Of a stretch of DNA of 64,000 bases, positions 24,154 through 63,657 are shown in pieces; positions within the stretch are counted from its first letter, which is position 1, and the number at the start of each line of letters is the position of its first letter. Location of the stretch: contig CP066686.1 of NCBI GenBank assembly GCA_016432365.1, positions 346,906-410,905 of the forward strand, given 5' to 3'. The notes below the pieces were generated by a model. The model was not told where the DNA came from, made no database searches, and was given only the letters and a program-made list of their open reading frames with translations. This stretch comes from Candidatus Woesebacteria bacterium (lineage in GTDB: Bacteria; Patescibacteriota; Microgenomatia; UBA8517). The translations under genes and the position numbers were made by a program.

Positions 24154-24777
24154 CTAAATAAATCGGTATAAGACGGCCGGACGATGAGGGACGTTTTTTT
24201 GGATCATGGTCACTTTGCGAATCGTTCCGGAGCTAATAATCTTCTTTCTAAAATTTCTGTTGTCCAGTTTCTTTTTTCCGATAATTTCATGAACAGTCTG
24301 AAGACCGTTGAGCGGAAAATAAGGGGGCATAAACTCTTTAACTATCTGGTTATCCAAATTTTCCTTAAGATATTCCAAAGCTTTTTCTATAATTTCCTTA
24401 TGGTCAAATGCCAGTTTTGGTAAGGTTCCTATTCTTTGAAAATTATCAAAATTGGCCACTTTATCAGGAGAAATTAAAGCAATAAACCCGATAGAAACAA
24501 CTCTGCCTCTGGGGTCGCGGTTGGGCTTAGTGAATGAATAAAATTGTTTTAAAAATACATTTTTCTTACCAAAAATATCTTTAATTTTTCTGGACAGTGT
24601 CTGCTCGGCTGACTCTAGTTTCCTAAGTAGCCCTCCGGGAAGTTCTGACAGATTTTTGTATGGTTCTTTTTCGCGGGAATTCAGGTACACAAGAAGCTCA
24701 CCGTCTTTAATTGTAAGAATGACTGCATTTACAGCAATACTACTCTCCTCATAGCCCGACAAGATTTTTGTCCTCAT
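24154..24777 (-). CDS. nrtR: NrtR-family transcriptional regulator (NUDIX + wHTH), copy 1
   Basis: LPGG, degenerate Nudix box, RDPRGRVVS, LAFDH, DNRNFRKK, RPAVLYRF. Confidence 0.88.
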   Translation of the reverse strand: MRTKILSGYEESSIAVNAVILTIKDGELLVYLNSREKEPYKNLSELPGGLLRKLESAEQTLSRKIKDIFGKKNVFLKQFYSFTKPNRDPRGRVVSIGFIALISPDKVANFDNFQRIGTLPKLAFDHKEIIEKALEYLKENLDNQIVKEFMPPYFPLNGLQTVHEIIGKKKLDNRNFRKKIISSGTIRKVTMIQKNVPHRPAVLYRFI

Positions 24778-24797
24778 TAGAGTTATTGTATCACACC

Positions 24798-24818
24798 TTA
24801 ACGTAAAAATCACGTATT
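24798..24818. promoter_or_regulatory. NrtR operator
   Basis: TTAACGT-AAAAATC-ACGTATT, GT-N7-AC core. Confidence 0.7.
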
Positions 24819-38170: not shown

Positions 38171-39316
38171 TTATCTGCGTTGAAGGCCTTTCAAGAAATT
38201 CCTCGTCATCGGATCATCGAGTCCGCGTATGGCAGCCTCACTTTCCTGTTTGGTGACATGTTCACCATCGAGCTGTTTGCCAAGTGCAACCAGGACGTTT
38301 CCAACGTTGGGTTCATCTCTTGTGACAGCTTCCTTGTGGCAAAAATGCGCAAAGTCATCAATTCCACCAGGACCATCGCGACGGAAGCTCGGCCATGCAC
38401 GGTCAAAGGCATCGGCATCAAGCTTGGTAAAGTGGCGTATGAATTTTGCCATTTCTGTCCAGTGGCCTGATGTAAACCATGGTCTGCCGTCTTGATAGTG
38501 CCAGCCTTTGTCATCTGTTTGGCGTGCAGCGCTTAGGATACGCCTATGTAGGGTGGTTGAAACAGGGAGTGGGGCCCAATGCCACGATTCGTAAATACTG
38601 ATTGTTTCCGGAATTGGGAGGCGGTCATATTCAGCATACTGCTTTCCCTTCCACACCTTGACGATTTTATGGTTCCAATAGGAGCCATAGTGATCGTAAG
38701 GCTCAATCACGGCCGTGTTTCGATTCCAGTTAAGGTCATACTTAATGGCAATCAGCTTTCCTTGACCAACCGAACCATAAGACCATTTTCCTTCATTACG
38801 CTTGAGGTAAGCTTCTGCTTTTTCGCCTGTGACAACTGACAATCCACCTTTAAGGAACTCTGGGTAAAGGTAGAGAATCCCATTTTCCGTATCCCATTCC
38901 TTGACCTTCATGCGGAGTTCCGGTGCGAACATTCCACGTTCCTCATCGTTGTTGAAGACGAAGGTAAAGGTGGAACCATCAACCAGTTCGTAATACGTGA
39001 CAGCGCCGCACTTTTCGCATTTATGTCCGTGCGATTGGATGCCGGTGGTGGAAATCTGTTGATGACAGGTACCGCAAATACCAAAACGAAGATTCGGAAG
39101 TTTAGCGAACCAAAGCGACCAACCGTTTATCTCCATTGTGGCAACAGGAACGCCGTCTTTCTTGCGGTAATCTGATTGGCGGAGGTCTTCAACTTCATAT
39201 CCACTCTTTCGGAGCTCTTTCAACAGGCGATTGAGGGCTTCTGGTGTTTTGGCATAAATATCCCCCATTACGTCGATGAGATCGTCATTTTTGACAGTGA
39301 GATTTAACCCTAACAT
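38171..39316 (-). CDS. Hypothetical protein with CxxC..CxxC zinc ribbon
   Basis: 381 aa, AAGGAGG RBS, CGTC/CEKC; visibly more GC-rich than its flanks. Confidence 0.85.
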   Translation of the reverse strand: MLGLNLTVKNDDLIDVMGDIYAKTPEALNRLLKELRKSGYEVEDLRQSDYRKKDGVPVATMEINGWSLWFAKLPNLRFGICGTCHQQISTTGIQSHGHKCEKCGAVTYYELVDGSTFTFVFNNDEERGMFAPELRMKVKEWDTENGILYLYPEFLKGGLSVVTGEKAEAYLKRNEGKWSYGSVGQGKLIAIKYDLNWNRNTAVIEPYDHYGSYWNHKIVKVWKGKQYAEYDRLPIPETISIYESWHWAPLPVSTTLHRRILSAARQTDDKGWHYQDGRPWFTSGHWTEMAKFIRHFTKLDADAFDRAWPSFRRDGPGGIDDFAHFCHKEAVTRDEPNVGNVLVALGKQLDGEHVTKQESEAAIRGLDDPMTRNFLKGLQRR

Positions 39317-41513: not shown

Positions 41514-43082
41514 TCAATCAGTTCGGTAATGGCATCCGGCACTTTTGGTGTTTTCCCATGCAGCGTTTGCTATTAAGTTACCGACCAGTACTAAATTTCT
41601 AAGTCCGATTAATGATTCGTTTAGATTTTTTTGTTGATAAAAACTTTCAATTCTGTGAGTAAGATACGAAAGATCTGCTTTGGCTCTAGTTAAGCGTTCT
41701 TTATTTCTCACCAGGCCTACACAATTCCACATTATTTGTTTAATCAAATTTGTATCTTGATTAATAAGTGCAGGGTCGGGATCTTCTTTGCCTTGATCGA
41801 CCCATTGGGGAATTTGGGTTGGATTTGGAACTTGTGTTTTTTTTGTCCGGTTGATGTTGTGGGCAGCGATATATCCCCAGGTTAATCCTTCAAGAAGAGA
41901 AGTCGAGGCAAGTCGATTTGCACCATGAAGGCCGGTACAGGCAACTTCGCCTACGGCATATAAATTTTTTATGGTTGTAGCGCCATTCTCATCCACCCAA
42001 AGCCCACCGCAATGATAATGGGCGGCAGGAACAACAGGAACCAGATCGCGGGTTAAATCGATTCCGTATTTTAAACACTCTTTGTGGATATTGGGAAAGT
42101 GGGTCAAGATTCTTTCCTTCGAAATATAACTTTTTAGGTCCAGATAGACATTTGTTATTCCGCCTTCCAGCATTTCTGTATAAATCGCACGTGCTACAAC
42201 ATCCCGGGGGGCAAGGTCCTTCCACTGTTTACTGTATTTATCCATGAAAGGGACGCCATTTGAATTTGTTAGGCGAGCGCCATCTCCCCGTATGGCCTCG
42301 GTAAGCAAGAAACGCGGAGCATCTTTGTGGTAAAAAGCAGTAGGATGAAACTGAACATACTCCATATTGATTACGCGTGCGCCGGCCCTTTGGGCCATAG
42401 CAATTCCATCTCCACGAGCCCCATCCGGGTTTGTTGAATATAAGTAGACATTTCCAAGTCCGCCGGTTGCCAAGACCACATTTTTTGCAATGATTCTAAC
42501 GACCCTTTTATCTATTGGATCAAAGAAATAGGCTCCAAGACAGGCGACGGGGTCGTAAATTGCCAACTTGTTTGTAGAATTGTGTGATGAAGTAATTAGG
42601 TCGACAGCGGAAAGATTTGCGAGGAGTTTAATCTTTTTATTACTTTTGACTTTTTCTATTAAGGCACTTTCTATTGATTTACCGGTAGCGTCGGCTTGAT
42701 GGATTATTCTGGCAATGCCGTGTCCGCCTTCCTTTGCCAGTGAGAGGTCAAATCCTTCCCGGTCAAACGAAACGCCAATTCTGTCTATAAGAAATTTTTT
42801 GACCAGGGACGGTCCAACTTTCGTCAAAATATCAACCGCCTTTGGATTTGATAGATTTACCCCGGCATTGAAGATATCTTTTGCCAGGAGGGATGGGGAG
42901 TCGTCCTTGCCCTTATAAATAATTCCACCCTGAGCATAATAAGTATTTGATTCCTCAGGTTTTTTATTTTTGGTAATAAGAATAACCTTATGCCCTAAGT
43001 GTGCAAGTTCCAGGGCGCATGTAGCACCCGCAATTCCACTTCCGATAATGAGAGTATCAGTAGTAACTAATTCTTTTTGCAT
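41514..43082 (-). CDS. nadB: L-aspartate oxidase
   Basis: GSGIAG, AQGG, EGGH, QFHPT, EAIRG, AHYHCGG, LHGANRLASTSLLEG. Confidence 0.96.
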   Translation of the reverse strand: MQKELVTTDTLIIGSGIAGATCALELAHLGHKVILITKNKKPEESNTYYAQGGIIYKGKDDSPSLLAKDIFNAGVNLSNPKAVDILTKVGPSLVKKFLIDRIGVSFDREGFDLSLAKEGGHGIARIIHQADATGKSIESALIEKVKSNKKIKLLANLSAVDLITSSHNSTNKLAIYDPVACLGAYFFDPIDKRVVRIIAKNVVLATGGLGNVYLYSTNPDGARGDGIAMAQRAGARVINMEYVQFHPTAFYHKDAPRFLLTEAIRGDGARLTNSNGVPFMDKYSKQWKDLAPRDVVARAIYTEMLEGGITNVYLDLKSYISKERILTHFPNIHKECLKYGIDLTRDLVPVVPAAHYHCGGLWVDENGATTIKNLYAVGEVACTGLHGANRLASTSLLEGLTWGYIAAHNINRTKKTQVPNPTQIPQWVDQGKEDPDPALINQDTNLIKQIMWNCVGLVRNKERLTRAKADLSYLTHRIESFYQQKNLNESLIGLRNLVLVGNLIANAAWENTKSAGCHYRTD

Positions 43083-43083
43083 T

Positions 43084-44175
43084 TTAACTAATTGTCATCA
43101 TTCGTCTGACCGCAACTTCTGCAGGGCGTCTAATTTCTTCGGGGATCGTTACTTCATACTGATCAAATCTGAGGGCATCGAGAGTTTGTTCTAATGTAAT
43201 TGTGTGCATAAACTTACATCGTATATTGCACATTCTAACTAAGTTTTCGTTAAGTTCCGGGTGAGTGGCAACTATATTGTCAGCCATGGAACATTCTGTA
43301 AGAAGTGCAATTTTTTTATCTGCTCCGTTTTCCGTAACCCATTTTGTCATTGCAGAAGTACTTCCGGAAAAATCCGATTTTGCGATTACACCCGGCGGAC
43401 ATTCCGGATGGGCCAAGATGACTGCTCCCGGATAATCTTTTCTTATGTCATCGACAAGTTGGGGAGTGTATTGTTCGTGAACATAACAGCGGGCATCCCA
43501 TCCGATTATTGTCGGTTTTTGGGTAACTTCTGCTTCACTTTTGACAGAATCTTTTGTCGGGAAATATAAATCCATTTTTAGATCATTCGCAACATTGCCG
43601 GCCATATATTTGTCCGGAAGAAATATAACTGATGGTACGTTGAAATACTTTTTAGCCCAAGCAATTACCTGGTTAACATTTCCTGAAGTACAACATACAT
43701 CAGTCAAAGCTTTAACGTCGGCAGTTGTATTGATGTAACTTACTATTGGGAGATTGGGATATTTTTCGCGGAGCCAAACAAGATTTTCCGGTTTAATTCC
43801 TTCCGCCAGAGAACAACCGGCATCAAGTGATGGAATTAAAACTTTTTTGCTTGGATTTAAAATCTTGGCAGTTTCAGCCATAAAATGAACACCGCAAAAA
43901 ACGATCGTATCTGCATCTGTTTCCGCTGCACGTTTAGAAAGTTCCAGCGAGTCCCCTCTAAAATCAGGAACTGTGTGGAAGAGAACCGGCTCCATATAAT
44001 TATGTCCCAAAATCACGGCATTTTTCTGACGTTTCAATTCCATGATTTGACTAACCAGGTCTGCTTTATATTTAAGTTCGAAATCTGGCACCACGCTTTC
44101 CGGAATTGATCTTCTGAGATCGACTCTTAATCTTTCGTAAACTTCACTTGATGATTCTTGTCGTTCTGTTTTCAT
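43084..44175 (-). CDS. nadA: Quinolinate synthase
   Basis: GHNY, GDSLEL, FCGVHFMAETAKILNP, GCSLA, HPEC; three Fe-S cysteines. Confidence 0.97.
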   Translation of the reverse strand: MKTERQESSSEVYERLRVDLRRSIPESVVPDFELKYKADLVSQIMELKRQKNAVILGHNYMEPVLFHTVPDFRGDSLELSKRAAETDADTIVFCGVHFMAETAKILNPSKKVLIPSLDAGCSLAEGIKPENLVWLREKYPNLPIVSYINTTADVKALTDVCCTSGNVNQVIAWAKKYFNVPSVIFLPDKYMAGNVANDLKMDLYFPTKDSVKSEAEVTQKPTIIGWDARCYVHEQYTPQLVDDIRKDYPGAVILAHPECPPGVIAKSDFSGSTSAMTKWVTENGADKKIALLTECSMADNIVATHPELNENLVRMCNIRCKFMHTITLEQTLDALRFDQYEVTIPEEIRRPAEVAVRRMMTIS

Positions 44176-45008
44176 TATATTTCTAAACTAACATCCATCG
44201 CTTTTACCGAATGGGTGAGGGCACCTACTGAAATGTGAGTTACACCCGTTGCTGCAATACTTCTTACTGTTTGGAGATTGACGTTTCCGGAAGCTTCGAG
44301 TGGAACACGGCCGTTGGTAATACTAACGGCCTCACGCATTTTTTCTAAACTCATGTTGTCAAGTAAAATTCTATTGACAGGGAACTTTAAAGCTTCGGTT
44401 AGCTCTTCAATATTTTTTACTTCCACCTCGACGGGGAGGTTTAAAGAGTTTGCTGTAAGAACTTTTTCCAAGGTTGCGCCGATAGTTCCCACCGCCGCAA
44501 TGTGGTTGTCTTTAATGAGAATTGCGTCACTTAAGTTATAACGGTGATTTTGTCCGCCTCCCGCTTTAACCGCTATTCTGTCCATCAGTCTTAAACCGGG
44601 GGCGGTTTTTCTGGTATCCAGAATTATTGTTTCGTACGGCTCAACGGCCTTTACAAATTGATGTGTTAGGGTTGCAATTCCGCTCATTCGTTGAAGAAAA
44701 TTCAAAGCAACTCTTTCGGCGGTTAATATACTTCTGGTTTTCCCAAAAATTGTAGCGGGAATGTCACCTTTTTTTACTTCTGTGCCATCTGGAATTATAT
44801 GTTCAAATTGAATATCCGGATCAAAAGTTTCAAATGTAATTCTTGCGATATTTAGCCCGGCGATAACACCCTCGCTTTTTACCAGAAGTTCTGCGGTTGA
44901 CCTTGCTTCCTCGGGGATAGAGAGATTGGTGGTCACGTCTCCGTTAATGCCAACATCTTCCGCAAGCGCCCCTTTTACTATTTGAACAATTTTTTCGTTC
45001 TCGATCAT
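44175..45008 (-). CDS. nadC: Quinolinate phosphoribosyltransferase
   Basis: ERVALN, DTRKT, NHR, LIKDNH, EVEV, LLDN, EASG; start placed at MIENEK. Confidence 0.97.
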   Translation of the reverse strand: MIENEKIVQIVKGALAEDVGINGDVTTNLSIPEEARSTAELLVKSEGVIAGLNIARITFETFDPDIQFEHIIPDGTEVKKGDIPATIFGKTRSILTAERVALNFLQRMSGIATLTHQFVKAVEPYETIILDTRKTAPGLRLMDRIAVKAGGGQNHRYNLSDAILIKDNHIAAVGTIGATLEKVLTANSLNLPVEVEVKNIEELTEALKFPVNRILLDNMSLEKMREAVSITNGRVPLEASGNVNLQTVRSIAATGVTHISVGALTHSVKAMDVSLEI

Positions 45009-45065
45009 ATGTGTATAAATTACACTTTCTAAAATGAGTGTATTCCTTACACTAACTATTGTCAA
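45008..45065 (-). promoter_or_regulatory. nad operon promoter with two NrtR operators
   Basis: TTGACA-17-TACACT; boxes TATGTGT-N7-ACACTTT (45008-45028) and TGAGTGT-N7-ACACTAA (45035-45055). Confidence 0.8.
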
Positions 45066-57547: not shown

Positions 57548-58986
57548 TCTTTGGTCCGGCTTTATTCTTCGCCAGTCAGGCGCTGTTTTACGATTTGCCT
57601 GAATATTTAAATATTGTTTCAAATAACTCATTTCTCCAAGTCTTTTCTCTCGGTCACTTTCCTATTCACCCAATATTCATGGGAATTCTTTGGATTTTGA
57701 CAAGGTTCCTCCCTGTCAACGCAATTGCAATGGTTTTTGGAGCAATATCGATTATCATTTTTCATAAAATTGCCAAGTTGATATTTAAAAATGGTTCATA
57801 TTGGTTATCGACGGTTATCTTTGCGCTCTTTCCGGCAGTTTGGTTAATAAATACAAATTTGATGGTTGAGTCGGTGACTTTAACCCTTTATCTTGCGGGA
57901 CTTTATTTCTTTTTAACGAAAAAAGCGATGCCATTTTTTATCAGTTTATTTTTAATGATCGGAACCCACCTGCAGTCTATTTTTTGGATCCCGGCATTAT
58001 TTCTTGCTCCCTATATTTTTGAGGTAAATTTCAAAAAGGAGGATGTTATCAAATTTATAAAAATTGCTTTGGCCGGAATATCAATGTCCATTGTTTTTTA
58101 CATTCTCTTATATTATTGTTCCGGCAGAATTCCGGGGGGTACAACTGAGCAGCTCGCAACATATTTATCTTCGGGAATATTACGAATGATTAGAAACATT
58201 TGGCTTTCTTTTATCCGTAATTTTGGGACGCTTACACCATTTGTTTTGACATTGGTTTTGGTCAGAAAAATCAAGTCGAAAAAAGTATCAATAGCCTGGA
58301 TAATGTTTCTGGTTCTAGTCGCGATAATGGGTGCCAACTGGCAAGGGGACTTTATGGGTAGGAGAATTATTTTTTCGGGGGTAATTTTAGCACTTGGTCT
58401 TTATAAATATTTACAGAAATGGTCCGTCTTTTTCATTTTGTATTTATTACCGATCGTCGCAGCAAATGTGATTTTGTATTCAAACTCCAGTCCGTTCATA
58501 ACTCCAAATATCCCCAAAGGTCAGGTGTTAATTGAAACGCACTTTCTCAAACCCTTTATAAAATATGATGGTACGACTCTTTGGATTGGCGAAAGTGACC
58601 TTGGTGTTATCGACAATTATTTAAAAAATGGAACAAGAGTATTTTTAACCGAACAAGCTATCACGGCTCCATATTTACTCTTAGTCGGACAAAACTATCA
58701 TATCACTTCATTGGGGAAGGTTGGGGATTCGGAATCAAGATTTCTGTTCAAAAAATACACAGTTGAACAGTATAACGACAGCTTTGAGTTAAAAAGGTTC
58801 AATGGAGTAGTTTCGGCGGAGGCGGGAAGTCCGGTAATTTACTACGATCAAAGCTTTTGGGGGAGACTTGCGAGAAGGAGAATCGACTATGGAGATATAG
58901 GAACTTGGCTTTGGGCATTTGCGGCAAACCATCGCGACCCGACAGGCTGGATTTATAAAGACGCTAGAGGTGTAGTTACCTATTGA
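57535..58986 (+). CDS. Polytopic membrane protein, GT-C-like
   Basis: More than 10 TM segments, YD..EY and HP loop motifs. Confidence 0.6.
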   Translation: MHQLIFGPALFFASQALFYDLPEYLNIVSNNSFLQVFSLGHFPIHPIFMGILWILTRFLPVNAIAMVFGAISIIIFHKIAKLIFKNGSYWLSTVIFALFPAVWLINTNLMVESVTLTLYLAGLYFFLTKKAMPFFISLFLMIGTHLQSIFWIPALFLAPYIFEVNFKKEDVIKFIKIALAGISMSIVFYILLYYCSGRIPGGTTEQLATYLSSGILRMIRNIWLSFIRNFGTLTPFVLTLVLVRKIKSKKVSIAWIMFLVLVAIMGANWQGDFMGRRIIFSGVILALGLYKYLQKWSVFFILYLLPIVAANVILYSNSSPFITPNIPKGQVLIETHFLKPFIKYDGTTLWIGESDLGVIDNYLKNGTRVFLTEQAITAPYLLLVGQNYHITSLGKVGDSESRFLFKKYTVEQYNDSFELKRFNGVVSAEAGSPVIYYDQSFWGRLARRRIDYGDIGTWLWAFAANHRDPTGWIYKDARGVVTY

Positions 58987-59020
58987 CAAGGTATAGTAGT
59001 TAGTGTATATACTACAATTA
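58983..59020 (+). promoter_or_regulatory. nrtR copy 2 promoter with autoregulatory operator
   Basis: TTGACA at 58983; TTAGTGT-ATATACT-ACAATTA (59000-59020) overlapping the -10. Confidence 0.75.
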
Positions 59021-59022
59021 GT

Positions 59023-59679
59023 ATGAAGGATACAAAGACATTTGCAGTATTGGCCACAGACGTTGCAGTTTTGACTATCGACAATGGTGTTCTTAAAGTC
59101 CTTTTAACCCAGGCGACATCTAAAAACTTTAAGGGAATGTTGACTTTGCCTGGAGGTTTAGTTGGTCATAAAGAACGTACCGAAGAAGCTGCTATAAGAG
59201 TCCTCAAGGAAATAATGATAAAAACGGATTACTATAACGAGCAACTTTATACATTCGACGATCCCGGCAGAGATCCTGAGGGTCGAGTCGTAACAGTTGC
59301 CTATTTAATGTTGGTTCCGGAAGATGAGGCTAAAAGAGTAACTAGAAAAGACGCTTCGTGGCACGCCGTGAAAACTTTACCAAAGTTGGCATATGATCAT
59401 AATGAAGTTGTGAAAGCTGCTGTGAAAAGGCTAATGGGAAAATTGACCTACACTAATATTGTTTACTCTTTGATGCCCTTGGAGTTTACTCTTTCAGATT
59501 TGCAGAAAACCTACGAAACTGCGCTGGAACTAACCCTAGATAAAAGGAATTTTATTAAAAAAATAAAGAGTTTAAATCTTGTTCATAAGACAACCCATAA
59601 GGTTGAGGGTAGTGCACACCGCCCGGCAACCCTTTACAGGTTCAGGGAGCGAAAATATAAGAGGGTTGACTTATTTTAG
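59023..59679 (+). CDS. nrtR: NrtR-family transcriptional regulator, copy 2
   Basis: LPGG, EQLYTF..RDP, LAYDH, FTLSDLQ, DKRNF, RPATLYRF. Confidence 0.9.
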   Translation: MKDTKTFAVLATDVAVLTIDNGVLKVLLTQATSKNFKGMLTLPGGLVGHKERTEEAAIRVLKEIMIKTDYYNEQLYTFDDPGRDPEGRVVTVAYLMLVPEDEAKRVTRKDASWHAVKTLPKLAYDHNEVVKAAVKRLMGKLTYTNIVYSLMPLEFTLSDLQKTYETALELTLDKRNFIKKIKSLNLVHKTTHKVEGSAHRPATLYRFRERKYKRVDLF

Positions 59680-59742
59680 AAAATACCTATAATACGAAGT
59701 TGATATTTTTAAGCACTTTAGTTAGTGTAAAATATACATTTT
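59666..59742 (+). promoter_or_regulatory. Operon promoter plus NrtR operator
   Basis: TTGACT-16-TATAAT; TTAGTGT-AAAATAT-ACATTTT (59722-59742). Confidence 0.7.
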
Positions 59743-59939
59743 CAAGATTGAAATGAAGGTTTTTCAGAAAAACCTCCTGACAATTTTTAATTTGTACTTT
59801 AACAGTTAAAGAGTGTTACTAAAGATTCAGAACTGTTTGTGACGGTCACACCCTTTCGACTAAATATTAGCCGGAAGAGAGTGACTGTTACAGCAGAAAC
59901 TGAAGCTGTGATGGCATATATCTACAAAAGGAGATCACT

Positions 59940-60869
59940 ATGGACGAAACCAAAAGCACTGATTTGAGCATTGTGCCTGTAAAGCCCGATGCCGCATTGG
60001 TGGCCACCCTTACTCACGAATTCGACTTCGTCGGCGCGAGTGGGGCGAATTACGAGGCCTACAGTCTTGGTGGCAAGCCGTTGGTGGAAACACCGACTTT
60101 CAAGTTGGCTATCACCAAACTTCCGTCCGGCCAGTTTGGCTTGACGATGATTGCGTCCGAACCCAAGCACAATTGGCGGATCGAAACACAACAGCATGTT
60201 CTGCATACCTTGCAGGAAATGGCTGCGTTTGAAGACGCTGAGACAAAAGGCGATAAGCCTTTCTTCGGCGCACTTTTCCCCACCATGGTAGATACCATGG
60301 ACACGGGCGAGGACAATCCTCGGGCCGGGCTTGTAATGGGTTTCCATCCGGAAATCGCAAGCTACAAGCAGCTGGTTCCGCTCTCGGTTGTTCTCAAAGG
60401 CGGCAAACGCGTCGATCTTCAGACCAGTGTTTGGATGCTAAGTAAGGCCCTCAAGCTCCTGGACTTTGTCCACGCAATGGGTTTCGCGATCAACTGGATC
60501 GATGAGGATAATTACCTGATCGAGACTGCCCGCCACGGCGTTTTCATCCTGAATTGGATGGAATCGATCGAGGAAGCATCGGTTGATGAGCAGAAGACCG
60601 ACATCAAGGACCTTGCCAATCTCGTTTGGCGCGCTGCTGGCGGCACGGACAAATCGAATCCCCCTCATGACGAAAAGATCATGGACAAGGCCGGATACGA
60701 CAAGTTCGTCGCCTTTTTGAAGCGCTTGATGAGCGAGCCGGATACGGCTGGCAATGAAATGGACGCGCTCCTTGCGCTGGCCGATTCGATCTGGGAACGG
60801 ACTGCTTTCCCCGGCGTTCGCACGCCCGATGGCAAGAAGCGTCCTTTCCATGAATTCGTTACGTACTAG
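59940..60869 (+). CDS. Protein-kinase-like protein, probably catalytically inactive
   Basis: WMLSKALKLLDFVHAMG..NYLI..HGVFILNW resembles kinase subdomains VIa-VII without HRD/DFG; AGGAG RBS. Confidence 0.65.
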   Translation: MDETKSTDLSIVPVKPDAALVATLTHEFDFVGASGANYEAYSLGGKPLVETPTFKLAITKLPSGQFGLTMIASEPKHNWRIETQQHVLHTLQEMAAFEDAETKGDKPFFGALFPTMVDTMDTGEDNPRAGLVMGFHPEIASYKQLVPLSVVLKGGKRVDLQTSVWMLSKALKLLDFVHAMGFAINWIDEDNYLIETARHGVFILNWMESIEEASVDEQKTDIKDLANLVWRAAGGTDKSNPPHDEKIMDKAGYDKFVAFLKRLMSEPDTAGNEMDALLALADSIWERTAFPGVRTPDGKKRPFHEFVTY

Positions 60870-60878
60870 GAGGTCGAA

Positions 60879-62027
60879 ATGAAGACAGAAGACACTGCAA
60901 TGTTCAATACGAAAAAGTATGAATCCACTGTGGAAGCAATGCGCTCCCGCGGCGAAGAGGTTCATGCCAAAGGCCGTGAGATTTATCGCCGGACCAAGCG
61001 TATGGATCCTCTGGTTGATGTCAACGGCAAGCTCCGCTTGTCCCACAACTCGTTCAAAAAAGTTGATGGCAAGCCAGTGCTCGTCAACGGCCCAGCCCTG
61101 CCGATCTGGTCCGGGTTCGATGGAACCGGTTCGATGGGTGAAAATGCCGGCCGCGCACACGCTGCACTCGCGGAAATCAACGCGATGCTCAATGGAATCC
61201 GCGGAACCTACAATCCGCAACTCGCGACATCGGTAATTCAGGATGTGGATGACCCCCACCCTGTCTTCCAGATGTCCCAGTTTGAGCCTGATGAACGGAT
61301 CGCAGAGCAAATTCGTCTGCTGATCCCCGACGGCGCTGGTGGCGATGAGACCGAAGACTACCAGCTTGCGCTGGCCTATCTCATGTTGGCGACCGATTTC
61401 GATATCGCCAACTTCTATGGCCTCAAGGGCTATGGATTCATCGTTGGTGATGAAATCGGGCGCGAAGACGTGACCGTGAAAGATGTCGAAAAACATCTCG
61501 GCCACAAGCTTCAGAGCAAAATGACCACCAAGGCTGTTGCCAAGGAACTGGCCAAGAAGATGCATCTCTTCTACATCCACGTTCAACTTGGGCATAGCCA
61601 TGGCCATTCACCTGCCTGGTGGCAAGACAAATTCGGCGCCGGCCATGTCGTGGTCGCGACTGACGTCAGCCTCTTGGCTGAACTTCAGGCCGGGCTCATC
61701 TACGTGACCGAAACTCTCGAACCGACCGAAGCTGGTCTCTTCGAATTTCTGTCGGCTGGTGGATCGAACAAGCATGCTACCAAGAGCGCAGTTGCCAAGG
61801 TCTGGTCTTGGATCACTGAAGCCGGCGTTCCTTTCGGCGCTCAGGTCAAGCTTGCCGGTTACAAAGACCTTCCCAAACCGGGAGACGTCTTTGAGAACAT
61901 CCGTCATCAGTGGCCCGTCGGTCACAAACGCTTCGCTGAGAATGTGATCGCCCCCGAGGCGACCGTCACCGAAGTGCACGTCAGCTCTCCCAAGAGCGAA
62001 AAACCCGATTGGTCTCGCTTCGGCTAG
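60879..62027 (+). CDS. vWA-domain protein
   Basis: MIDAS-like DGTGSM, GAGGDETEDY, IVGDE; GGAGG RBS. Confidence 0.8.
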   Translation: MKTEDTAMFNTKKYESTVEAMRSRGEEVHAKGREIYRRTKRMDPLVDVNGKLRLSHNSFKKVDGKPVLVNGPALPIWSGFDGTGSMGENAGRAHAALAEINAMLNGIRGTYNPQLATSVIQDVDDPHPVFQMSQFEPDERIAEQIRLLIPDGAGGDETEDYQLALAYLMLATDFDIANFYGLKGYGFIVGDEIGREDVTVKDVEKHLGHKLQSKMTTKAVAKELAKKMHLFYIHVQLGHSHGHSPAWWQDKFGAGHVVVATDVSLLAELQAGLIYVTETLEPTEAGLFEFLSAGGSNKHATKSAVAKVWSWITEAGVPFGAQVKLAGYKDLPKPGDVFENIRHQWPVGHKRFAENVIAPEATVTEVHVSSPKSEKPDWSRFG

Positions 62028-62172
62028 ATCGTCTGAACTGTAACACTCTTTTCGTGTACCCACTCGCATCCTTTGGGGTGGGTACACGATCTTGCATAAG
62101 ATCTTTAATTTTTGAAACGACGTCATTGCGATGTCAATTTATTCGAAAATTAGAAAGATCCATGCAAGAAAC

Positions 62173-62227
62173 TAACCCTCTTCCGATGTGTGTCGGAACC
62201 GATGAGCCCCAAAGGGCGAAAGGGATA
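62173..62227 (+). ncRNA. Type III hammerhead ribozyme-like RNA (U4C core variant)
   Basis: CCC-UC / stem I UUCCGA-UGUGUG-UCGGAA / CCGAUGA / stem II GCCC-CAAA-GGGC / GAAA-GGG. Confidence 0.75.
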
Positions 62228-62232
62228 ATAAA

Positions 62233-63657
62233 ATGGAAAGACAAACTGCCATTGTAACAGGACTAGGCATTGGCGATGAAGCCAAGGGTGCGACAGTTGA
62301 GTGGCTTACACGCCAGCTCAATGCTCATACCAATCTCCGATCCGGCGGACCTCAGGGCGGGGCTCATATATCAAGAATCGACGGACGTGAGCAGATGTTT
62401 TCGCAATTTGGAGCCGGTACTTTTGAGGGAGCAAAAACACATCTTCTGCACATGGTGGTTAGCCCCTGGGATCTTTTCAACGAAGCAGTGGATCTTGAAA
62501 AAAATGGCGTGGAAAAACCACTCGAACGAATAACAATCGATTCAGAAAGTTTAATCCTTACCCCGTATCACAGCGCAATTAGCAGATTTAGGGAAATTAT
62601 GCGTGATGAGAAAAAAGGAACGGTGGGTAAGGGTGTAGGGGAAGCGATTCGCGACTCTAAAAATCCGGAACTTTCAATCCGGGCGTGGGAATTCTTCGAA
62701 CCCAAGGAAACACTTGCGCGTAAAGTTGAAGCGATCAGATCTTCCAAATATTCAGAGGCTCTGGAAATAATTAGACAAAAAAACGGAAAGGAAATGCCCG
62801 GGGCGGCTCAAATGGAACTAAACATTCTTCTTAATAGGAGACTGGTTGGGCAAACTGTAGACATGTTTTCTTATATGGCCGGTTTGGTTAAGATAGTTGA
62901 CCGTTCTTATCTGGACGACATTCTAAATCTTCCCGGATCGATTGTGGCGGAATCGTCACAGGCCGCACTTCTGGACCCCAGAATTGGCTTTGTGCCCCAT
63001 GTTACTCAGGTTGATACTACAGGAAGAAGGGTTATTAATACGCTTAAGGATCATGATTACAGAGGAAAAGTAATTCGGCTTGGGGTAAGCCGCACCTATA
63101 TGATAAGGCACGGTGCCGGTCCTTTTGTAAGTTATAGTCCGGAAATGACAAAAACGCTCCCTGAAGCTCATAATGCAAATCCCGTAGACACTCCATGGTC
63201 GGGTGAATTCAAAAGAGGGCATTACGATGTGGTTGCCATGAAATATGCGATTGATGCAACGGGCGGGAGGCGTGCGTACGACGGATTGGTTATAAATTTC
63301 ATGGATATTTTGAAAGATAGAAAGGAATGGGATGTGTGTGTAGCCTATGATTATGACGGCGATAAACACGATTTAGAAGATTTCTTTGTAGTTGAAAATG
63401 GTCTGATCCGAGGTATAAAAGTTCACCATGATGACGGTAGCTCGGCCCATCTCAATCACCTGGCTCAACTCACAAAACTACTCGCCAAAAGTCATCCCGT
63501 TTTAACTACATTAAAAGCTGAGGACAGCAAATCTCTTTCGGAAGTGTTTATAGATTTCGTTGAATCTAGCCTTGAAGTTCCTGTGGTTGCTACCGCCGAC
63601 GGGCCTTACGTTGAAGATAGGCATATCCGATCGGGACACGAAAATTCATTTGGTTGA
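62233..63657 (+). CDS. Divergent adenylosuccinate synthetase-like protein
   Basis: GDEAKG, GGPQGGAH, GTVGKGVG, ESSQ..LLD, RTYMIRHGAGPF, NFMD, DGP. Confidence 0.85.
   Translation: MERQTAIVTGLGIGDEAKGATVEWLTRQLNAHTNLRSGGPQGGAHISRIDGREQMFSQFGAGTFEGAKTHLLHMVVSPWDLFNEAVDLEKNGVEKPLERITIDSESLILTPYHSAISRFREIMRDEKKGTVGKGVGEAIRDSKNPELSIRAWEFFEPKETLARKVEAIRSSKYSEALEIIRQKNGKEMPGAAQMELNILLNRRLVGQTVDMFSYMAGLVKIVDRSYLDDILNLPGSIVAESSQAALLDPRIGFVPHVTQVDTTGRRVINTLKDHDYRGKVIRLGVSRTYMIRHGAGPFVSYSPEMTKTLPEAHNANPVDTPWSGEFKRGHYDVVAMKYAIDATGGRRAYDGLVINFMDILKDRKEWDVCVAYDYDGDKHDLEDFFVVENGLIRGIKVHHDDGSSAHLNHLAQLTKLLAKSHPVLTTLKAEDSKSLSEVFIDFVESSLEVPVVATADGPYVEDRHIRSGHENSFG

Follow-up and report, generated by a model that had tools for sequence, protein, structure and literature searches.

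A predicted NrtR-controlled module with a non-canonical PurA-fold protein, a leader–trailer helix and a hammerhead motif in a Candidatus Woesebacteria genome

We analyzed a 64,000-nt stretch of the Candidatus Woesebacteria contig CP066686.1 (the whole of it is called the window below). An initial annotation, made from the letters alone, had described near its 3′-end an NrtR-controlled operon with a pseudokinase, a vWA protein, a divergent PurA and an RNA-processing layer. All listed parts were found between 59000 and 63657: nrtR, two operators, a kinase-fold gene, a vWA gene, a spacer with a hammerhead and a PurA-like gene. Three of four DNA runs, possibly the source of the region, contain it in one piece and without differences. 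The features are as follows.

45008–45055, minus strand: two more operator copies upstream of nadC-nadA-nadB, same predicted regulon, outside the module
59000–59020, plus strand: predicted NrtR operator 1 (GT-N7-AC), overlapping the nrtR promoter (−35 TTGACA at 58984)
59023–59679, plus strand: nrtR, Nudix plus winged-helix repressor, 218 aa (Nudix + NrtR_WHD, E 1e-21)
59666–59693, plus strand: predicted module promoter, sigma-70-type, 11/12 match
59722–59742, plus strand: predicted NrtR operator 2, in the interval between promoter and first gene
59794–59805, plus strand: boxA-like motif, immediately 5′ of the helix 5′ arm, in the layout of the host 16S leader
59808–59819, plus strand: long-range leader–trailer helix, 5′ arm
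59823–59907, plus strand: long leader hairpin (similar core in related loci L011, L012, L052 and L066)
59940–60869, plus strand: pseudokinase of Ser/Thr kinase fold, 309 aa, GC3 0.655, lacking the VAIK Lys, αC Glu, HRD Asp and DFG Asp
60879–62027, plus strand: vWA protein with MIDAS-type DxTxS, 382 aa, GC3 0.634
62040–62051, plus strand: long-range leader–trailer helix, 3′ arm
62052–62170, plus strand: two hairpins, predicted end of the upstream cleavage product
62176–62224, plus strand: type III hammerhead, U4C core variant, predicted cut after C62180
62218–62224, plus strand: hammerhead 3′ arm, predicted purA Shine–Dalgarno (GAAAGG), 8 nt before the ATG
62233–63657, plus strand: retooled adenylosuccinate-synthetase-fold protein, 474 aa, His41 replaced by Ala, the only PurA homolog in the genome
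63646–64000, minus strand: 3′-end of a convergent Pol-beta-type nucleotidyltransferase gene, 631 aa, running past the window (L084:6552–8447)

The nrtR product has both the Nudix domain and the NrtR winged helix, and its own operator as well as that at the downstream promoter, both proposed by the initial annotation, fit the GT-N7-AC consensus (PMC2330246, Rodionov et al. 2008). Such 21-bp sites were also found at promoters of NAD genes. A matrix trained on the two module operators only ranked the pre-nadC sites 3rd and 10th of 1,078,965 genome positions, while in the reverse test a matrix from the pre-nadC sites ranked the module operators 3rd and 4th (training sites are counted in these ranks). 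Only five sites in the genome reach at least 16 bits; two other high-scoring operator-like sites were inspected, and no NAD gene was seen there. The genome has two NrtR paralogues, either of which may bind these sites. Among 63 non-redundant related loci, seven have an intergenic site of at least 16.7 bits upstream of the kinase or vWA gene.

The predicted model of the kinase-like protein has a bilobal kinase fold and resembles PknB-type Ser/Thr kinases (pLDDT 93; Foldseek E 5e-10). The claim that it lacks HRD and DFG held: there is no HRD Asp, the DFG Asp is changed to Asn (N205), and the substitutions K70M and E84Q affect the other two positions. Across its family (n = 92) the Lys is kept in 64, the Glu in 64 and the Asp in 84 sequences, and the HRD Asp is not conserved. 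Judging by these residues, the protein looks catalytically stripped. The vWA model resembles integrin/vWA domains, with a Rossmann-like fold, and its MIDAS residues D81-x-T83-x-S85 are invariant in 72 of 72 sequences.

The PurA-like protein matches PF00709 (E 2e-41) and has the PurA fold and the GDxxKG P-loop with Asp13; it scores 118 bits with the purA equivalog model, against a cut-off of 402. T129 and R143 of PurA are ligands of the IMP 5′-phosphate and His41 is catalytic; in this copy the three are Val, Glu and Ala. R131 is also lost, and in place of T300, T301 and R303 of the aspartate-binding loop we found Trp, Ser and a deletion. The loss of His41 is shared by six close relatives, some of them without His at the next position too. 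Among 48 family members G12, K16, G17, G130 and E221 are invariant; Asp or Glu at position 13 (48), Q38 (47), H41 (47) and V273H (48) are conserved. R303, with its role in aspartate binding (PMC8342488), is deleted in all 48; T300 is Trp or Tyr in all 48, and T129 is kept in one. In a model search of the genome we found no PurB-family gene (controls 14/14). The initial annotation had called this protein a non-canonical PurA and had named ordinary IMP + Asp + GTP activity as an observation that would speak against it. The sequences support the former, suggesting that the family is not an ordinary IMP + Asp enzyme and that its contacts to aspartate and to the IMP phosphate are lost.

The gene-neighborhood comparison recommended in the initial annotation showed that the genes co-occur widely. 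The PurA-like gene follows the vWA gene in 50 of 63 loci, i.e. in all 50 with room for it, mycobacteriophages included, as in the remaining 13 at most 185 nt of DNA is left (counts exclude 20 duplicate or overlapping loci and G207, a weak vWA match without PurA-like). The proposed trio stood in part: the vWA–PurA-like link is fixed, the kinase is replaceable, and a conserved fourth member had been overlooked, the nucleotidyltransferase gene, whose 3′-end overlaps purA. For this fourth gene, atlas searches yielded nucleotidyltransferase leads that were all below 0.9, and for a recurrent neighbor (c5) nothing usable. As judged from gene content, the conserved core is vWA plus PurA-like, with the nucleotidyltransferase added in Patescibacteria.

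Several related loci adjoin NAD genes: nadE (L021, L063), nrtR with nadE-pncB (L023) and nadR-pnuC-nrtR (L039, L042); on a Rhodococcus plasmid an NrtR-like Nudix gene and a GT-N7-AC site lie next to the module. In an even phylum sample NrtR was present in three of four other module genomes and in 15 of 396 without the module (Fisher p 3e-4; small numbers); for NadE the counts, one of four and 32 of 396, did not differ significantly (p 0.29). In 11 of 19 module genomes the search gave no NrtR, and it gave none in the four named genomes nearest by vWA sequence, three of which pair a boxA with the leader–trailer bracket described below. NrtR control and the RNA layer differ in distribution.

The leader folds at z −4.48, in agreement with its annotation as structured, and its 5′ arm pairs over 12 of 12 bp with the trailer ∼2.2 kb away. 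The motif immediately upstream, which like the loss of His41 is absent from the initial annotation, we label boxA-like from the general consensus and, as a further basis, from the host rrn leader; the pattern occurs at 36 places in the genome. The 16S operon of the same genome has the same layout, boxA and then arm. In one Patescibacteria subclade a boxA-like motif, together with a covarying leader–trailer helix, brackets a GC-rich, over-folded kinase–vWA block; the arms vary in sequence among loci with pairing kept, always 3′ of the boxA-like motif. The long-range stem layer of the initial annotation is thus conserved in related loci. The mean Watson–Crick run is 10.2 with a locus' own trailer versus 6.2 across loci. 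Twelve of 13 bracket loci, picked after inspection, do better than 97% or more of random windows (L011 fails), and the own trailer ranks first against other trailers in only seven of 13. NusB and RNase III are encoded in the genome. The helix, a putative RNase III substrate, is 12 bp here; E. coli 30S assembly requires a leader–trailer helix of >17 bp (PMC10250234).

The spacer (62028–62232, 205 nt) folds at z −6.55 and ends, as had been noted, in a hammerhead; no other type III match occurs in the genome. The core elements CUGANGA, GAAA and NUH and three stems are present. Rfam gave no hammerhead, whether with gathering or with E-value thresholds; a sequence pattern and a custom model recovered the family. 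We found 24 further homologues in 17 loci with compensatory changes; in an unfitted 12-row alignment 168 of 168 cells are paired and six of 14 pairs are compensatory. Of the 15 copies upstream of purA, 10 lie 3–9 nt before the start and five at 15–21 nt. The tail of the host 16S rRNA is complementary to the 3′ arm; in an equilibrium model access to three G positions of the Shine–Dalgarno rises modestly after cleavage, from 0.32/0.01/0.21 to 0.63/0.11/0.46. No hammerhead match was found in the phage and Lachnospiraceae copies of the module, and no exact pattern in viral contigs. A U4C core reportedly makes hammerheads less active in vitro, and the functions of bacterial hammerheads are largely unproven (PMC3088659).

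With moderate confidence, at a level where we would expect to be right about half of the time, we characterize the locus as an NAD-regulon module released by ADP-ribose, in which a rebuilt PurA-fold enzyme is predicted to use a substrate different from IMP plus aspartate and the message would undergo rRNA-precursor-like processing and be split by the hammerhead. From the predicted sites and the behavior of the family, NrtR would repress its own gene, the module and nadCAB, with ADP-ribose releasing it. The boxA-like motif after the promoter could load NusB-type factors. The covarying leader–trailer pairing would enclose the GC-rich kinase–vWA message and may govern RNase III cleavage and message stability. 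The hammerhead, given its structure, would cut after C62180 and so part an upstream message capped by hairpins from the purA message, whose Shine–Dalgarno had belonged to stem III; adaptor proteins and enzyme could thus be made at different levels. The enzyme would keep the PurA step, phosphoryl transfer from an NTP to the purine 6-oxo group, followed by attack of a small amine, most likely ammonia. By analogy with the J-domain and AAA+ partners in relatives, the vWA protein and pseudokinase may be non-catalytic assembly or activation partners, and the nucleotidyltransferase may act on the product. The copy without His41 may turn over slowly, rely on a different acid or serve for nucleotide binding only. 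More tentatively, and with the balance against it, the exact chemistry could be a nucleotide-repair reaction, the amination of hypoxanthine carrying a substituted 5′ phosphate (e.g. deaminated NAD or ADP-ribose). Induction by toxins, phage or host defence and a modified purine as the product, both suggested in the initial annotation, would be hypothetical additions to this reading.

An unlikely alternative, which we nevertheless take seriously, is protein-directed conflict or signaling: the vWA protein and a pseudokinase, with a J-domain in some cases, would present a protein to which the PurA-fold and Pol-beta enzymes attach a nucleotide, or sense one, in phage–host conflict. The trio occurs in mycobacteriophage I3 and on plasmids as well as in large IMG/VR contigs; a query with the PurA-like protein matched 201 records of Mycobacterium phages, and scanning viral contigs with a vWA profile gave no locus. 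J-domains and AAA+ ATPases are found among relatives, and the distribution is patchy, with the module in none of five same-family genomes. The His41 loss in this copy would fit a binding role, and passages of PMC9503650 describe Nudix-regulated systems with vWA chaperones in ADP-ribose conflict loci. Against this, the neighbors are housekeeping NAD genes, a Pfam scan of neighbor clusters showed no recurrent known defence gene, and the small-molecule active-site core is kept in 47–48 of 48 members. NAD upkeep appears to fit better than anti-phage defence because the module adjoins nadE, pncB, nadR and pnuC and occurs in lytic phages.

It is doubtful that the kinase–vWA block is a cassette recently swapped in from a GC-rich donor, with the arms being DNA inverted repeats, the hammerhead a phage-type insulator and no tie to the NAD regulon. 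The block is indeed GC-richer, as the initial annotation had stated (GC3 0.655 and 0.634 versus 0.39 for nrtR and purA and 0.37 ± 0.05 over 510 genome ORFs); GC3 shifts exactly between the arms, and prophage hammerheads flank gene blocks (PMC3088659). The identities of the four genes are uncorrelated within the hammerhead subclade (rho −0.06 to 0.34, not significant), though such correlations do not separate co-descent from swapping. Still, high GC3 of these two genes recurs in many independent hosts that are AT-rich, with purA host-like, and the arms differ between loci and yet pair, 3′ of a boxA-like motif. At fixed codon content the coding RNA is over-folded: with 7–12 synonymous shuffles each, z is −2.0 for kinase and −5.6 for vWA here and −8.0/−3.1, −5.3/−6.1 and −1.7/−1.2 in three relatives, whereas purA is not over-folded, with z +0.6 here and −0.8, −1.7 and +0.8 in the relatives. 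No mobility gene adjoins the block, and no block-skipping joint was seen among contigs of the four DNA runs, contigs being a form of the data that drops rare variants.

The idea that the PurA-like protein replaces NadE, as a non-orthologous NAD synthetase amidating the nicotinate carboxyl of NaMN or NaAD via an acyl-phosphate, is attractive in this genome and improbable as a general explanation. Related P-loop ligases amidate carboxylates through acyl-phosphate; nadCAB is under the same operator, a NadM-like adenylyltransferase candidate is present, and NadE was not found in the genome by two models (controls 14/14). The 16S gene spans the contig ends, which suggests a closed circle, although the genome is rated 96% complete. 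The idea is not general because strong NadE matches occur in 26 of the 37 other module genomes, some adjoining the module; those without NadE mostly lack nadC and pncB as well. The protein has no PF02540 or TIGR00552 match, and its distribution is not complementary to that of nadE. Finally, despite the PF00709 match, the database names and its being the sole PurA homolog, it is highly improbable that the protein is a divergent but ordinary adenylosuccinate synthetase whose neighbors are unrelated, given the missing residues (aspartate loop with R303, R131, T129, R143, H41), scores far below equivalog cut-offs, the negative PurB search and the fixed linkage to vWA.

If the reading as an ADP-ribose-released NAD-regulon module is right, it points to an uncharacterised PurA-fold reaction tied to NAD/ADP-ribose in bacteria, plasmids and cultured mycobacteriophages. 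The RNA layer, if true, would place natural rRNA-style processing signals on an mRNA and a hammerhead at a ribosome-binding site, giving bacterial hammerheads a concrete role; a composition anomaly resembling recent transfer could then arise from selection on RNA structure. One could speculate, with low expectation of being right in full, that Patescibacteria moved the rRNA-operon toolkit of boxA, leader–trailer helix and strongly base-paired RNA onto an mRNA ending in a hammerhead that doubles as the next ribosome-binding site, stockpiling the partners of a PurA-fold NAD-repair aminase. This enzyme, carried by large phages too, would turn the base of deaminated NAD or ADP-ribose back into adenine.

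Our literature search, with subscription journals mostly outside it, returned no paper on this module or RNA layout, and comparison is thus with parts of known systems. With PurA (E. coli 1ADE/1KJX; 3HID) the protein shares the fold, the P-loop G12-D13-x-x-K16-G17, E221, Q224, T239 and D333; it differs by the absence of the aspartate loop (T300/T301/R303), T129, R131 and R143, by N38Q, V273H, K331F and, in this copy, H41A, by having no PurB counterpart in the genome and by always following a vWA gene. PurZ, the 2-aminoadenylosuccinate synthetase of Z-genome phages, is likewise a repurposed PurA in phages, and mycobacteriophage members bear a PurZ-type name in RefSeq; however, our protein scores 24.5 bits against a cut-off of 300, has an acidic residue at position 13 where PurZ carries Ser, lies in a different gene context and has no PurZ chain among its 22 PDB matches. 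In the TerY-P triad and MoxR-vWA systems, too, a vWA protein has a kinase fold or AAA+ ATPase as its partner; here there is no PP2C phosphatase, the kinase looks dead and the fixed partner is a PurA-fold enzyme (for vWA chaperones see passages of PMC7824862 and PMC9503650).

As in described NrtR regulons, a Nudix-wHTH repressor is combined with 21-bp GT-N7-AC sites overlapping promoters or preceding starts and with nad targets; the main text of PMC2330246 mentions neither purA nor adenylosuccinate. Like an rRNA operon leader (PMC10250234), the transcript has a boxA-like motif and, directly after it, a strand pairing with a trailer kilobases distant, but the helix encloses protein-coding genes, has 12 bp versus >30 bp in Enterobacteriaceae and is followed by a hammerhead. 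Prophage hammerheads (Perreault et al. 2011; PMC3088659, a text in which the word ‘Shine’ is absent) have the same core, three stems, U4C variant and position between genes; in contrast, those of the module are chromosomal and bound to one operon family, with an arm that is the predicted Shine–Dalgarno of the next gene.

Checks of ORFs, domains and RNA folds recovered every part listed in the initial annotation where it had been placed, and added a fourth gene of the module downstream. We read the resulting arrangement, with about even confidence, as a module of the NAD regulon under an NrtR repressor that would be released by ADP-ribose, with a transcript processed in the manner of an rRNA precursor and cut by a hammerhead ribozyme. 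The features are as follows.

59000-59020, predicted NrtR operator
59023-59679, nrtR
59722-59742, predicted NrtR operator
59794-59805, boxA-like motif
59808-59819 and 62040-62051, arms of a long-range helix
59940-60869, kinase-like gene
60879-62027, vWA gene
62176-62224, type III hammerhead
62233-63657, gene of the PurA-like protein (purA)
from 63646, convergent nucleotidyltransferase gene

The nrtR product carries Nudix and NrtR winged-helix domains (domain search). Structure prediction and comparison gave a Ser/Thr kinase fold for the 309-aa protein; in alignment the HRD and DFG aspartates earlier reported missing are indeed absent, and the VAIK lysine and alphaC glutamate are gone too. Most members of the kinase family keep the VAIK lysine, alphaC glutamate and DFG aspartate; the HRD aspartate is not conserved. 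The 382-aa protein has a predicted vWA fold and a DxTxS motif invariant in the family alignment, in agreement with its description as a MIDAS protein. The 474-aa protein, the sole PurA homolog in the genome, scored far under the purA and PurZ cut-offs, and the convergent gene encodes a 631-aa Pol-beta-type nucleotidyltransferase that shares 28-40% identity with 20 others. The genome is a single contig (1.08 Mb, 40% GC, rated 96% complete), the ends of which are crossed by a 16S gene. Elsewhere in the window (38171-39316, minus strand) we saw a 381-aa ORF of no known function that contains two CxxC pairs and whose GC3 is raised (0.48).

The expectation that the module proteins co-occur across genomes held in 63 non-redundant loci collected through the vWA gene: a PurA-like gene lies downstream of vWA in 50, and the remaining 13 loci end within 185 nt. 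Kinase-like genes, belonging to one or the other of two families, occur in 39 of the 63 and the nucleotidyltransferase in 21, nearly always directly after purA; in one further locus (L052 7191-10499) PurA-like protein and nucleotidyltransferase are fused in a single 1,102-aa protein. In some other loci (L015, L018-L021, L023, L024, L028 and L063) the place of the kinase-like gene is taken by an AAA+ ATPase, a pyruvate-kinase barrel protein and a second vWA, in the order unknown gene, AAA+ ATPase, vWA, pyruvate-kinase barrel protein, vWA, PurA-like, nucleotidyltransferase. None of these variant loci showed a hammerhead match. A 208-kb viral contig, mycobacteriophage I3 and a Rhodococcus plasmid each carry a J-domain kinase, vWA and PurA-like protein, and the plasmid has in addition a GT-N7-AC site and an NrtR-like gene; the PurA-like query matched 201 Mycobacterium phage records. 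The module was absent from all five same-family genomes examined. Upstream of the phage trio in locus L001, an ORF (323-796) with what we take to be a macrodomain-like motif had no Pfam match at 1e-3. That the module is instead a protein-directed conflict system is possible, if doubtful.

In many AT-rich hosts the kinase and vWA genes are high in GC3, with purA and the nucleotidyltransferase host-like: the values are 0.65 and 0.63 versus 0.39 in this genome, and 0.75 and 0.79 versus 0.16, and 0.67 and 0.68 versus 0.20, in two other AT-rich hosts. The coding RNA of kinase and vWA folds better than synonymous shuffles and that of purA does not, as judged from few shuffles. One could regard the kinase-vWA block as a DNA cassette; since high GC3 recurs in many AT-rich hosts, unlike the outcome of one recent transfer, selection on RNA structure fits better and a cassette appears unlikely, but gene distances compared inside the subclade gave no significant result.

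The hammerhead-like RNA noted at the end of the spacer proved to have a type III core, unique in the genome, with compensatory changes among homologues: in an alignment with 12 unfitted rows, 168 of 168 cells are paired and compensatory change is seen at 6 of 14 pairs. An Rfam search missed it. Pattern scanning of the loci gave 20 clear hammerheads and two poor matches (none in shuffled controls), and a model recovered another 24 copies from 17 of 65 other sources. The U4C hammerhead core is a natural, slower variant according to PMC3088659. The ribozyme lies before purA in 15 copies, at most 9 nt from the start in 10; its GAAAGG arm complements the tail of the host 16S, and modelled access to the ribosome site after cleavage showed a modest gain only. 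Cleavage and processing of the transcript would lead to unequal expression of kinase-vWA and purA.

Other hammerheads end blocks of two GC-rich genes without known function. Beside the module, two or three GC-rich genes of neighbour-gene clusters c5/c8 and c6, without Pfam or Atlas assignment, recur in blocks that have a hammerhead at their end and, in several cases, a boxA-like motif at their start:

L016 8750-10337, c5/c8-c6 block
L046 11368-12751, c5/c8-c6 block
L047 10785-12315, c5/c8-c6 block
L067 3589-5158, c5/c8-c6 block
L054 3367-4849, c5/c8-c6 block

A separate 319-nt contig in metagenome run X1 (record 2) matches the hammerhead alone (62182-62221, 6 differences), so this metagenome also has the ribozyme type in a different setting.

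The long-range stem proposed earlier is present, as a short helix, in the minimum-energy fold of 2,436 nt, and the pairing recurs, with covariation, in related loci. We paired the 20 nt 3′ of the boxA-like motif with the 60 nt that follow the last GC-rich gene in 13 loci, picked after inspection, having complete flanks and a boxA-like match. The mean pairing run was 10.2 with a locus's own trailer versus 6.2 across loci; at least 97% of random windows paired less well in 12 of the 13 (L011 fails), and the locus's own trailer was best among all trailers in seven. The boxA-like motif by itself matches 36 places in the genome. This genome's 16S leader shows the same order, a boxA-like motif and then a pairing arm, and boxA followed by leader-trailer pairing is the layout of rRNA operons (PMC10250234). 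NusB and RNase III are encoded in the genome, and Nus factors may load on the module transcript. As a side observation, ~22 kb separates the 16S 3′ end from the 23S 3′ motif (host contig G000:C1 1078052-1056231, minus strand), where a motif search found no good match to the 23S 5′ motif; this rRNA operon is split or intron-rich.

Both module operators match the GT-N7-AC consensus of NrtR sites given in PMC2330246, and NrtR presumably binds them and would be released by ADP-ribose. Two further copies (45008-45055) lie upstream of nadC-nadA-nadB, a full de novo NAD operon at 41514-45065 (minus strand); a matrix from one operator pair ranks the other pair 3rd to 10th among 1,078,965 genome positions. 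A second NrtR paralogue (24154-24813, minus strand, 37% identical) had no strong operator match upstream. Among 63 other loci, 7 have an intergenic operator copy ahead of the module, and in five loci the module is next to nadE, pncB, nadR or pnuC. When the phylum was sampled evenly, NrtR occurred in 3 of the 4 other module genomes versus 15 of 396 without the module (p 3e-4). Two results count against the link: only 8 of the 19 module genomes searched yielded NrtR, and NadE, although enriched in the set obtained by searching (8 of 18 other Patescibacteria versus 33 of 401), was not significantly so in the even sample (p 0.29).

NadE and PncB were not found in this genome despite nadC-nadA-nadB and a NadM-like gene, which leaves a pathway hole in NAD synthesis. 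One could suppose that the PurA-like protein substitutes for NadE; such a role cannot hold generally, given that NadE is present in 26 of 37 module genomes, and we consider it quite unlikely.

Comparison of 48 PurA-like family members with E. coli PurA showed that the P-loop, D/E13, E221, Q/H224 and T/S239 are retained, and H41 in 47. Phage I3 gp273 is one member that bears His41. T129, R131 and R143 are lost, T129 and R143 being ligands of the IMP 5′-phosphate in PurA. Common changes are N38Q, V273H, replacement of T300 by Trp or Tyr, and loss of R303 by deletion; in PurA, R303 contacts aspartate and the IMP ribose (PMC8342488). A PurB-family gene was not found in the genome. Given these losses and the missing PurB, an IMP-plus-aspartate reaction is unlikely; with the score far under the purA cut-off the protein is, as first described, non-canonical, and an ordinary PurA is very improbable. 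The residues suggest a small amine as substrate, since the aspartate pocket is filled, and a 5′-substituted substrate, since 5′-phosphate ligands are lost. Together with the NAD context, these features lead us to propose, quite tentatively, that the family would re-aminate the hypoxanthine of deaminated NAD or ADP-ribose. The copy in this genome has Ala at His41, as do six close relatives, some without a neighbouring His; it may therefore be weak or non-catalytic.

A literature search, with most subscription journals outside its coverage, found no description of the module or its RNA layout; PurA is unmentioned in the available parts of PMC7824862 and PMC9503650, one supplement of the latter included; module genes could appear in the NrtR regulon supplement of PMC2330246. 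Taken singly, the parts of the module are of known kinds; the system as a whole, RNA layout included, matches none.
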